Assembly: GCA_038253135.1 (NCBI GenBank)
Contig: JBBSHJ010000002.1
Location: 9,217 to 73,216, forward strand
Source of the DNA: Mycobacteriales bacterium
GTDB taxonomy: Bacteria; Actinomycetota; Actinomycetes; Mycobacteriales; QHCD01
DNA: 64,000 nt
Direction of reading: 5' to 3'
Below, one piece after another: positions 4,159-62,836 of this stretch. The notes beneath the pieces were generated by a model that saw only the letters and a list, made by a program, of their open reading frames with translations, was not told the origin of the DNA and ran no database searches. Both the position numbers and the translations under genes were made by a program. Positions within the stretch are counted from its first letter, which is position 1. Every line of letters begins with the position of its first letter.

Positions 4159-7068
<2,910 letters not shown>

Positions 7069-7074
7069 GCCCAC

Positions 7075-7247
7075 TCAGTCGATCTGGGGCCCGGGACGGC
7101 TTTCTCGGTCGCTGCGCGCCTCGCTCGTTCCTCGCTCGGGTGCTCGCTCCCTCGTCAGCCGATCTGGCGCCCTGGACGGCTTTCTCGGTCGCTGCGCGCC
7201 TCGCTCGTTCCTCGCTCGGGTGCTCGCTCCCTCGTCAGCCGATCTGG
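7075..7247. repeat. 80-bp tandem repeat, 2 full units (7075-7154, 7155-7234) plus 13 nt, filling the secA / Rv3235-like convergent spacer
   Basis: Direct alignment of the two units shows 3 mismatches. The third partial unit is the 3' end plus TGA of the minus-strand gene. Same family as 9604-9639 and 44291-44396. Confidence 0.9.
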
Positions 7248-7888
7248 AGCTGCACGCACCGCCACCTCCCGTCCAGGCCCTCGAGGCGGGCGGCGACCGC
7301 CCGGTAGCGGGCGCCGTGTCGTACGACGGCCGCCAGCTCGACGATCCCGTCGGCCGGTGTGGTGACGTGCACCGAGCGCAGCGGTGAGGCGGGTACGGCC
7401 GGTCCGCCACGCCGCGCTGGTGCGGGGCGGGCGAGCGGCCAGCTCCGCCGGCTCGCGACCCGCTGCGAGACGCCGTGGAACACCGCGGGGCTCAGCATCG
7501 GCTGCACCTGCGTGATCGACCGGCGCCCGGCAAGCACCTCGATGAGGGCGCGGATGAGCACCCGTCCGAACCGCTCGGGATCCGGCAGGTCGGCCGAGCG
7601 GGTCGGCTGCCGCTCGAAGAATCCGGCGACCCGACTCGCGGTCGCCGGTCGCGCAATCGGTCGCGGCGCTGGGGCGGGATCGTCGAAGGGGAGTGGCTCG
7701 GTCTCCGGCGGGACGAGGTGCAGGTGCCGGTGGCCACCTACCGGCTCGGTGACGAGTGACGGGTGCTCATGCTCGGCCCAGTCGCAGACCGGATCCAGCG
7801 GTGGCTCGAACGGTGCCAGCCGCCGGACCGTCGGCACGCGGGTGAGTGTCGGAGCGGGGCTCATCGGTTCGGTCGCGGCTGCGGACAT
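7235..7888 (-). CDS. Rv3235-like conserved actinobacterial protein
   Basis: 217 aa. Segment FGRVLIRALIEVLAGRRSITQVQPMLSPAVFHGVSQRV resembles the Rv3235 family. Conserved position convergent with secA. Confidence 0.65.
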   Translation of the reverse strand: MSAAATEPMSPAPTLTRVPTVRRLAPFEPPLDPVCDWAEHEHPSLVTEPVGGHRHLHLVPPETEPLPFDDPAPAPRPIARPATASRVAGFFERQPTRSADLPDPERFGRVLIRALIEVLAGRRSITQVQPMLSPAVFHGVSQRVASRRSWPLARPAPARRGGPAVPASPLRSVHVTTPADGIVELAAVVRHGARYRAVAARLEGLDGRWRCVQLQIG

Positions 7889-9603: not shown

Positions 9604-9639
9604 GAGCCTGGCGCTCGCTCGATGCTCGCTCCCTCGTCA
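9604..9639. repeat. short (about half-unit) copy of the 80-bp repeat family, abutting the stop codon of the HTH gene
   Basis: Minus strand reads GAC TGA CGAGGGAGCGAGCATCGAGCGAGCGCCAGG. The 20 nt TGACGAGGGAGCGAGCA are identical to the start of the units at 7075-7247. Confidence 0.7.
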
Positions 9640-9864
9640 GTCGACCGGACCGGCGAAGGGGTGCGACTGCACGAATTCCTGCGTGTTGTCGTACATCCGC
9701 TTGATGTACTCCTCCAGCTTGGGCGCCTCGACCCTCCACATGCCCTTGCCGCCGAGCTTGATCGCCTCGAGATCGCCATTGCGGACCAGCGCGTACACCT
9801 GCTTGTCCGACACGTTGAGCACCTCGGCCACGTCGGCGAGGGTCAGGAATCGTCGATCGGGCAT
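9637..9864 (-). CDS. helix-turn-helix DNA-binding protein (excisionase/MerR-like HTH family)
   Basis: ATG 9864. MPDRRFLTLADVAEVLNVSDKQVYALVRNGDLEAIKLGGKGMWRV is a typical excisionase-family HTH. Confidence 0.8.
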   Translation of the reverse strand: MPDRRFLTLADVAEVLNVSDKQVYALVRNGDLEAIKLGGKGMWRVEAPKLEEYIKRMYDNTQEFVQSHPFAGPVD

Positions 9865-43524: not shown

Positions 43525-44714
43525 CCGTCGAAACCCGCGCTCACCACGAGCAGGCGCCGCATGCGCTCGGCGGCGAGGTCGGGGTCAGGCAAGAGGCCCG
43601 CGGCATCGGCGAGCCGGAACAGATCCACCAGGTGCGGCACCGAGCGCGCCGACTGCGCAGCGCCGATCATCGTGAAATGGTCCTGGTGCCCGGCCAGCCA
43701 GGCGAGGAAGACGATCCCGGTCTTGTAGTGGTAGGTCGGCGCCTCGAAGCACTTGCGGGCCAGCGGCACCGTCGGCGCGAGGATGCCGTCGTACGCCGTC
43801 CGGTCACCGGAGTCCAGCGCCCGCAGGGCGCTTGCCGCAGCCGTGGCGATCGGGTCGAAGATGCCGAGCAACGCATCGCTGTGACCGGCGGCGTCACCGG
43901 CGATGAGGGCGGGGTAATCGAAATCGTCGCCGGTGTAGCAGCGCACGCCGGCCGGCAGGCGGCGGCGCAGCGCGATCTCCCGATCGGCGTCCAGCAGCGA
44001 GATCTTGATCCCATCGACGACGTCGGCGTGCGACTCGATCAGCTCGACCACGACGTCGGTGGCGGCATCGAGATCGGTCGAGCCCCAGTAGCCCGCCAGC
44101 GCCGGGTCAAACATCGGCCCGAGCCAGTGCAGGATGGCCGGCGCCCGCAGGCCGCCGAGCACCGCGTCATACACCTTGTGGTAGTCGTCCGGCCCGCGAG
44201 CCGCGGCCGCGAGCGCTCGGCTGGCCATCAGGACGACGGTCGCGCCGGCGTCGGTGACGACCGCGACCTGCTCCTCGTAGGCGTGCAGCACGTCGTCGAC
44301 CGACGGAAAACCGTTCTCCCTGCGCGGCCTCCTCAGTCGCTGCGCGCCGCGCTCGTTCCTCGCGCGGGTGCTCGCTCCGTCGTCGACCGACGGAAAGTCG
44401 AGCTGGTCGGTGCCCGCGCCGCACGCGAGGCGACCGCCGACCGATCGCGCGTCCGCGCCGCTGCGCCGGATGAGCTCCCTGGTGCTCGCCCAGTCCAGGC
44501 CCATCCCGCGCTGGGCGGTGTCCATCGCGTCGGCGACACCGAGGCCGAGTGACCACAGGTGGGCACGAAAGGCCAGGGTCGCGTCCCAGTCGAGCGCGGC
44601 CGGCGCGCCGGCGGAGCGGTCGGCGAGCGGATCGGCGACGACGTGCGCGGCGGCGTAGGCGACCCGTGACACCGGTGCTGTCGCGCCGGTCGGTACGGGC
44701 AGCGGGTCGCGCAT
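43521..44714 (-). CDS. DUF993 family protein, carrying an in-frame 29-codon repeat-element insertion
   Basis: ATG 44714. AMDTAQRGMGLDW region recalled as DUF993. Usual partner of Gfo/Idh/MocA and TIM-barrel isomerase genes. ATGA overlap with the downstream gene. Confidence 0.65.
   Translation of the reverse strand: MRDPLPVPTGATAPVSRVAYAAAHVVADPLADRSAGAPAALDWDATLAFRAHLWSLGLGVADAMDTAQRGMGLDWASTRELIRRSGADARSVGGRLACGAGTDQLDFPSVDDGASTRARNERGAQRLRRPRRENGFPSVDDVLHAYEEQVAVVTDAGATVVLMASRALAAAARGPDDYHKVYDAVLGGLRAPAILHWLGPMFDPALAGYWGSTDLDAATDVVVELIESHADVVDGIKISLLDADREIALRRRLPAGVRCYTGDDFDYPALIAGDAAGHSDALLGIFDPIATAAASALRALDSGDRTAYDGILAPTVPLARKCFEAPTYHYKTGIVFLAWLAGHQDHFTMIGAAQSARSVPHLVDLFRLADAAGLLPDPDLAAERMRRLLVVSAGFDG
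44291..44396. repeat. copy of the 80-87-bp repeat family inside the DUF993 CDS: 68-nt core flanked by perfect 19-bp direct repeats
   Basis: CGTCGTCGACCGACGGAAA occurs at 44291-44309 and 44378-44396 (spacing 87 nt = 29 codons). The core aligns with units at 7075-7247. The shared peptide ASTRARNERGAQR appears in the ORF track at both loci. Confidence 0.85.
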
Positions 44715-62688: not shown

Positions 62689-62710
62689 GCCGGCGTCGTC
62701 AGACGCCGGC
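62689..62710. terminator. 9-bp perfect GC-rich stem with 4-nt loop between the convergent hydrolase gene and the ECF operon (candidate bidirectional terminator)
   Basis: GCCGGCGTC (62689-62697) pairs with GACGCCGGC (62702-62710), loop GTCA. The stop of the repeat ORF lies in the loop. Confidence 0.45.
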
Positions 62711-62836
62711 GGTGCTCATTGCCGCCTCCGCGGAAACGAGTGCGTCGGCGGTGCTCATTGCCGCCTCCGCGGAAAGGAGTGCGTCGGCGGTGCTCATTGC
62801 CGCCTCCGCGGAAAGGAGTGCGTCGGCGGTGCTCAC
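62699..62836 (-). repeat. 39-bp tandem repeat, 3 full units plus a 21-nt truncated unit, each with SD + ATG + 13 codons (possible small repeat-peptide ORF)
   Basis: Minus strand reads VSTADALLSAEAA / MSTADALLSAEAA / MSTADALVSAEAA / MSTAGV stop. GGAGG lies 5 nt before each ATG. The first GTG overlaps the upstream stop (GTGA). Confidence 0.9.

Follow-up and report, generated by a model that had tools for sequence, protein, structure and literature searches.

The window, the whole stretch of 64,000 nucleotides that was analysed, corresponds to C2:9217-73216 of a 3.33-Mb assembly in 163 contigs. In its first part, secA, which owes its name to the preliminary description of this DNA and to the C-terminal KKYKRCHG motif, and a gene of the DUF6459 family converge, and a tandem array lies between them (Table 1). 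The secA reading frame ends at 7068 and the minus-strand frame at 7235, leaving the 166-nt spacer that had been described. The array itself was recovered by TRF at 7075-7247 with a period of 80, 2.2 copies and 96% matches, and comparison of the two full 80-nt units reproduced the three mismatches reported between them. None of the three mismatches affects the 51-nt core, an outcome with a chance of about 5%, which could hint at constraint, or at gene conversion from other copies, rather than neutrality; alternatively, it may be due to chance.

Table 1. Positions of the array segments, the adjacent genes and further copies of the repeat (positions in the window unless a contig is named)
Feature	Position	Strand	Remarks
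secA, 969-aa ORF	4159..7068	+	Convergent; same arrangement at orthologous loci
Distal 13-nt segment, CCAGATCGACTGA	7075..7087	-	One G to A change; then GTGGGC, then secA stop
Element copy E1, 67 nt	7088..7154	-	Two differences from E2, both in the 3' tail
Middle 13-nt gene-end segment, sense CCAGATCGGCTGA	7155..7167	-	Between E1 and E2
Element copy E2, 67 nt, sense CGAGGGAGCGAGCACCCGAGCGAGGAACGAGCGAGGCGCGCAGCGACCGAGAAAGCCGTCCAGGGCG	7168..7234	-	51-nt core identical to family consensus
Native gene end, proximal 13-nt segment (t), ...CC AG ATC GGC TGA	7235..7247	-	Stop at 7235-7237; segment recurs in each unit
DUF6459 (Rv3235-like) gene, 217 aa	7235..7888	-	Convergent with secA; array on its 3' untranslated side
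Truncated copy, 5' part only	9604..9645	-	Abuts stop of 103-aa gene ending CCG GTC GAC TGA
In-frame copy within DUF993 gene	44292..44396	-	87-nt (29-codon) insert
Standard copy at nuoC-nuoD	G000 C6:36331-36410		Own genome, outside the window

Within the array, the last 13 nt of the DUF6459 gene alternate with 67-nt element copies, and the sum of the segments (13+67+13+67+13 = 3x13 + 2x67 = 173 nt) is the length of the TRF interval. Removal of the 160 inserted nt leaves TGA-GTGGGC-TCA, and the ancestral spacer would thus have been 6 nt long. Every unit had been said to begin with ATCGGC-TGA on the minus strand; this is the case except for the unit nearest secA, which begins with ATCGAC-TGA, and the G to A change of this distal 13-mer brings it into agreement with the family consensus GTCGACTGA. 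At the position of the Shine-Dalgarno (SD) sequence, E2 has GAGAAAG, whereas the family has GAGGAGG. The plus strand does contain the A-free run noted previously, with a length of 60 nt in each unit (7097-7156 and 7177-7236) instead of about 57 nt. We do not regard this run as a signal and consider it unexceptional by itself, because runs of 50 nt or more that lack A or lack T occur 536 times in this genome of 70% GC. The reported lack of dyad symmetry was confirmed, since no inverted repeat of at least 8 nt was found within 60 nt, and both strands of the array fold no better than shuffled sequences (z = 0.0 and 0.4); the array is thus neither a REP element nor a terminator hairpin, as had been proposed. 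An intrinsic terminator (a G+C-rich hairpin followed by a T run) was not found within 7069-7234. The only match, a terminator-like hairpin with a T run at 7054-7036 of the minus strand, is situated beyond the downstream end of the array, inside the secA coding sequence. It is probably incidental, because it overlaps the codons for the C-terminal KKYKRCHG of secA and the same sequence is present in relatives.

The preliminary description had assigned the last codons and the TGA of the DUF6459 gene to the repeat. We looked for the same gene end in orthologues without the repeat and found it in two Mycobacteriales MAGs, whose proteins (46% and 42% identity) end with ...WRCVQLQIG* and whose last 12 nt (cagatcggctga) are identical to those of the window gene. 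Both orthologues are convergent with secA; the spacers measure 32 nt and about 110 nt and show no trace of the repeat. Furthermore, the open reading frame in the window matches the Pfam DUF6459 profile up to its last residue. Such an end in repeat-free orthologues had been named in the preliminary description as an outcome that would refute its assignment. Because two distant, repeat-free orthologues share the identical last 12 nt, the ...QIG-TGA gene end is ancestral and was not supplied by the repeat. Even so, the overlap of stop codon and repeat is not coincidental: the terminal 13 nt of the gene have been duplicated into every unit, and it is the repeat that took over the end of the gene. 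A number of n elements together with n+1 native 13-mers is what would be expected from one insertion with target duplication followed by unequal exchange.

A dispersed family at stop/start overlaps

A 35-nt core of the unit matches the window at 7120, 7200 and 44348, where no match is expected by chance, and profile matches at 9613-9645 and 44321-44392 agree with the further copies in the window that had been noticed before. The truncated copy of Table 1 is the profile match at C2:18829-18861 (E = 7e-4). In the whole genome, the 51-nt core was found by blastn at 47 loci with 92-100% identity, and a family profile built from 37 full copies gave 97 matches in at least 63 loci. The dispersed, MIRU-like family with locus-specific copy number that had been suggested from three loci therefore exists, and extends far beyond them. 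The consensus of its purine-rich strand is GCGTCGACTGACGAGGGAGCGAGCACCCGAGCGAGGAACGAGCGAGGCGCGCAGCGACCGAGGAGGTCGCGC; it is strongly purine-rich and contains three GAGCGAG sub-repeats. The whole window unit aligns without gaps to the standard 80-nt unit (64/80), and its last 32 nt still match at 20 positions, a value reached by 3 of 10000 shuffles. Blastn searches of plasmid and phage collections with the consensus gave no match, where the low-complexity filter may mask the query, and a full-text literature search with 17-19-mers of the core found nothing. A CRISPR-like reading, with a 51-nt repeat and a 29-nt spacer, was rejected, as the "spacers" of any one array are duplicates of one another.

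Many of the loci are tandem arrays of two to four units with a period of 80-82 nt. Several contigs start or end within such arrays (C35:1-124, C103:11121-11311, C159:37-107, C141:107-260 and C133:7435-7505, and C27:192-341 with C89:13686-13755); the copy numbers at these contig-end loci are lower bounds because the repeat breaks the assembly. At C16:17427-17598, C133:4177-4407, C73:1436-1604, C96:2866-3148 and C8:38541-38767, we observed composite arrays, in which sub-modules, either the 5' half or the 3' half of the unit, recur with periods of about 28 and 52 nt, and several of these loci are not co-oriented with the adjacent genes. The family is modular. Variation in copy number was found in a related MAG (G004), in which the contigs L004 and L013, with 96% identity along some 660 nt, differ by one clean 80-nt unit. 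This difference looks like the VNTR behaviour foreseen in the preliminary description, although at another locus and in another genome.

The placement of the loci was analysed with long, high-GC3 reading frames that end or begin beside each locus, as called by a crude codon-usage gene caller. A co-oriented gene end or start adjoins the purine-rich strand at 45 of the 63 loci, compared with 12 of 63 in the mirrored antisense control (binomial p = 1.3e-5). In 12 loci, the downstream start codon lies exactly at +1 of the model end, and 19 loci have it at 0 to +5. The start codon is near the model end because the units end with ...GAGGAGGTCGCGC-N(0-3)-ATGA or GTGA, and in about 24 units this ATGA or GTGA is located +1 to +4 from the model end; many units have another ATGA or GTGA 15-20 nt upstream of the core. 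Standard copies thus lie within ATGA/GTGA stop/start overlaps, with GAGGAGG 7-9 nt before the regenerated start. One of them is located at C51:12033-12104, between frr (ribosome recycling factor) and cdsA. In the 80-nt arrays of C27/C89, C103/C159 and C90 (C90:8997), the units contain mini-ORFs of 27 codons (start at -9, stop at +2), and the ATG or GTG frame of each mini-ORF stops on the TGA of the next junction. The period of 80 is 2 modulo 3, as a chain of -4 overlaps requires. We also considered the only candidate hairpin, which would sequester the SD sequence (GCGACC-GAGGA-GGTCGC), and rejected it as a conserved structure, since it shows no compensatory changes and many A-C mismatches (201 Watson-Crick, 20 G-U and 49 mismatched cells). 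Against this background the window array is exceptional, because it lies behind the last gene of a convergent pair and not between co-oriented genes.

An empty site could be compared with a filled one at nuoC-nuoD. In eleven relatives from ten genera, the nuoC stop is a plain ATGA or GTGA (AGTGA at the junction in G011). In seven of the eleven, nuoD follows directly, and GGAGG is found within the nuoC end of the relatives with direct overlap; in G013 it follows almost directly (20 nt), and in G009, G011 and G012 the nuoD alignment begins 49-146 nt downstream (49-53 nt in G009 and G012). The own genome has exactly 80 extra nt at this junction, with TGAGC on both sides. The insert brings a new GAGGAGG 8 nt before the ATG, and the old SD sequence has decayed to GGCGG.

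A second verified native target is provided by the copy in the DUF993 gene (Pfam DUF993 match, E = 3e-173). An 18-nt direct repeat that encodes FPSVDD borders the insert on both sides (44292-44309 and 44379-44396). When the protein is aligned to PDB 4dnh_A, the alignment is interrupted exactly where the insert lies. SVDD/SIDD is native, and the 18 nt are a duplication of native sequence.

Distribution and comparison with MIRUs

To see the family outside this genome, a sequence-only family model was run against 301 sampled genomes of the order, which represent 83 genera. It matched 68 of the genomes, from 29 genera and several families of Mycobacteriales, and arrays of 77-80 nt are present in other genera of the order as well. 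Outside the order, 7 of 300 other genomes of the class matched with E values up to 1e-4. The part common to the genera is a core of about 41 nt, which in other genera starts at the junction ATG (ATGAGTGAGCATCGCAGCGAGGAACGAGCGAGG...), while the 3' modules are lineage-specific. In other genera, a subfamily (L035, L036, L037, L031, L007, L008 and L026) joins the 5' core to another conserved 3' module, GATGAGCGCYTGCGCGAAGAGCC; its arrays, again of about 80 nt, have ATGA at their end. The sampled Mycobacterium genomes were recognised through their PPE genes; four of them have one or two weak matches each (E about 1e-4).

MIRUs, according to Supply et al. (1997) as summarised in PMC3184786 and PMC12548453, are units of 40-100 bp found at tens of loci, often in tandem and co-oriented between genes, and the ends of their small ORF overlap the stop and start codons of the neighbouring genes (-4 spacing). 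Filled and empty MIRU sites differ by a short (tetranucleotide) direct repeat, and the copy number varies between strains, as far as described in the summaries of PMC3184786 and PMC12548453; translational coupling has been proposed as the MIRU function (PMC12548453). The present family resembles MIRUs in unit size, number of loci, placement, mini-ORFs and filled sites. Its 80-nt unit is within the 40-100 bp range, its 97 matches at 63 loci include arrays of two to four units, and its placement is co-oriented at 45 of the 63 loci, nuoC-nuoD and frr-cdsA being examples. Mini-ORFs that overlap stop and start codons occur in the 80-nt arrays, although the two units of the window lack them. The nuoC-nuoD insert is flanked by a short direct repeat, TGAGC; the repeat at the window locus has 13 nt. 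As to copy number, the difference of one 80-nt unit was seen at one locus of the family, in the related MAG G004. The unit length is 2 modulo 3 here (80) as in H37Rv (77 and 53). On the other hand, the family has no significant sequence similarity to authentic H37Rv MIRUs, it is purine-rich with three GAGCGAG sub-repeats, and some of its copies lie behind terminal stops or in frame within a gene, with target duplications of 13-18 nt. Its host is an uncultured lineage of Mycobacteriales other than Mycobacterium, and in the sampled Mycobacterium genomes the family is nearly absent. In the searchable literature, we found no description of this family or of MIRU-like elements in other actinobacteria.

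Other classes of short repeats resemble the family in single respects. Like REP/BIME sequences and MITEs, it consists of short, non-autonomous intergenic repeats in many copies. Unlike REP/BIME sequences, it has no stable stem-loop, and unlike MITEs, it has no terminal inverted repeats, and its flanking repeats of 5, 13 and 18 nt are not of a fixed length. Rickettsia palindromic elements (RPEs) are palindromic and insert in frame into genes; the DUF993 copy is comparable in that it adds 29 codons in frame and leaves the gene unbroken, whereas the 80-nt family is non-palindromic and its in-frame copies are exceptional.

Origin of the array and alternative explanations

We consider it probable that the array represents a short MIRU-type repeat, neither autonomous nor palindromic, which was placed behind the TGA of the last gene with duplication of 13 nt and then expanded to two tandem copies, and which most likely does nothing beyond lengthening both 3' untranslated regions. 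At its usual site, a copy occupies the ATGA or GTGA overlap of two operon genes, adds 80 nt, keeps a TGA on its upstream side and brings its own SD sequence, GAGGAGG, 7-9 nt before the regenerated ATGA or GTGA. Ribosomes would then be handed from the gene to the mini-ORF and on to the next gene. The SD sequence, its spacing, the stop/start overlap and the mini-ORF all point to translational coupling that would be preserved by the standard copies. At the window locus, where the last gene converges with secA, a copy would have been inserted directly after the TGA of this gene, and the last 13 nt of the gene would have been duplicated beyond the insert to give t-E-t. Unequal recombination or slippage between the 13-mers could then have produced t-E-t-E-t, the present 173 nt; this order of events, insertion before duplication, is inferred from the arrangement of the segments. 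The window array is most likely an inert passenger, a terminal copy retained as a neutral by-product, because its units lack both a mini-ORF and a start codon in the expected position, the SD sequence is degenerate (GAGAAAG), and no gene follows downstream.

As for the mechanism of spread, two possibilities fit about equally well. One is an enzyme that makes staggered cuts and so generates target duplications. The other is homology-anchored copying from another array, in which template switching or recombination would take place on short, TGA-containing look-alikes, whole periods would be copied and the annealed junction would undergo patchy repair. The perfect native 13- and 18-mers favour the staggered-cut enzyme. 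The exact 80-nt period, the flank-like targets and the hybrid distal copy favour homology-anchored copying. The native target ends do resemble the 5' flank of the family, GTCGAYTGA (ATCGGCTGA at the window locus and GGTCGACGAC in DUF993); in both verified cases the core follows such flank-like native sequence, and the truncated copy follows GTC GAC TGA. The flanking repeats at the verified sites measure 5, 13 and 18 nt in the own genome and 24 nt in another genus, and such variable lengths are not easily explained by one enzyme with a fixed stagger. That the period is exactly 80 nt although 13 nt of it come from the target would be either a coincidence or an argument for homology-anchored copying over cut-and-fill duplication.

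A broader reading, which we hold to be possible but rather doubtful, is that the array is a stray copy from an undescribed superfamily of translation-phased mini-ORF elements, with insertion directed at stop codons in a strand-specific manner. The purine-rich core of about 41 nt, GAGCGAGCAYCG-AGCGAGGAACGAGCGAGGMGCGSAGCGA, which in other genera starts at the junction ATG and encodes MSEHRSEERARSGA..., would be its common part. Each of the verified sites, in sense orientation, immediately follows a TGA or a sequence resembling it, and 5-24 nt of the upstream target are re-created on the other side. If this were true, a dedicated enzyme could be at work, or a homology-anchored copying of arrays in whole 80-nt periods, and the elements would be nearly invisible to operon translation.

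Our preferred reading, an inert terminal copy of a MIRU-type repeat, has to be weighed against other explanations. Common descent with the units of M. tuberculosis would make the family a true member of the MIRUs, for which the shared design, size class and copy number would speak, as would the unit lengths of 80, 77 and 53 nt, all 2 modulo 3, and the motif GCGCAGCGA-Y-GAGGAGG, which is equally placed before the regenerated start in both. For this comparison we used G574, with 16 IS6110 primer sites, which we take to be the genome of H37Rv; its loci at 580, 960 and 2996 kb are arrays of 77, 53 and 51 nt. However, the family profile reached only 4-6 bits at the MIRU-4, -10, -26 and -40 loci (E = 88-460 at genome scale), the best match of the family model in the whole H37Rv genome was not significant (E = 0.6), and a profile built across genera had no match in the four MIRU loci. 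The motif is the only sequence in common, and seven of its bases are the SD sequence itself; the weak matches in four sampled Mycobacterium genomes do not add to the case either. Common descent is therefore unlikely in our judgement, and since none of the profile scores at authentic MIRU loci of M. tuberculosis is significant, we file the repeat as a separate MIRU-like family that shares the MIRU design with no detectable kinship of sequence. Another explanation, a purely local tandem duplication (a slippage VNTR) that resembles other loci by chance, would account for two adjacent units with 96% identity. It is refuted by the genome-wide family, with the 51-nt core at 47 loci and related cores in 68 of the 301 genomes of the order, and the orthologous spacers show no trace of a repeat; of all the explanations considered here, we give it the least credit.

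The array may also be thought to have a selected function at its site, namely Rho-dependent termination or insulation between the convergent secA and DUF6459 transcripts, with the unstructured C/T-rich strand in the 3' end of secA and the purine-rich strand in the other transcript. A secA transcript reading past the stop would indeed carry the C/T-rich strand of the array; the plus strand is A-poor and unstructured, with more C than G (68 versus 54), the spacer has neither an intrinsic terminator nor a hairpin, and extra length could have been useful if the ancestral spacer was merely 6 nt. Nevertheless, with a C/G ratio of 1.26 and a G content of 31%, the strand resembles a rut region weakly, and the relatives cope with repeat-free spacers of 32 nt and about 110 nt. 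Across the family, moreover, it is normally the purine-rich and not the C-rich strand that is transcribed, and for this reason termination cannot be the function of the family. We thus see little probability in a selected role at this site. Still more remote is the possibility that the repeat encodes a C-terminal extension, a small protein or a structured non-coding RNA. Stop codons are absent from two of the three sense frames of the consensus; but a comparison of both strands of 6800-7500 with Rfam covariance models, at E values up to 10, gave no match, folding was no better than in shuffled sequences, the SD hairpin lacks compensatory changes, the window units lack a start codon where one would be expected, and the DUF6459 gene stops at its ancestral TGA.

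MIRUs are used worldwide as markers for the typing of tuberculosis strains, and the present family is a second, widespread example of their design. An independent family suggests that repeats in stop/start overlaps recur in high-GC actinobacteria and are not a mycobacterial oddity. The empty and filled nuoC-nuoD sites and the in-frame DUF993 insert, for which the structure of a homologue has been solved, offer material for the study of insertion. The main value of the window array is that the arrival of an element has been preserved beside the ancestral target, which is kept in the orthologues. In practice, arrays of this family break short-read assemblies, because several contigs end inside them, and they can be a source of error when the ends and starts of genes are annotated.

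A second, unrelated MIRU-like family was observed in the window at 62707-62835, where a 39-nt tandem array has 3.3 copies with 98% matches. Its reverse complement is 87% identical to a 38-nt unit that occupies the nuoC-nuoD junction in other genomes, with four units in G001 (L049 1344-1507) and one in G006 (L050 1455-1498). This 38/39-nt mini-ORF repeat resembles the 80-nt family in its placement at stop/start overlaps and at the same nuoC-nuoD junction, whereas its sequence is unrelated and its unit only half as long. Because nuoC-nuoD carries either the 80-nt family or the 38-nt unit in three genera, stop/start overlaps in this group have been colonised repeatedly by small repeats.
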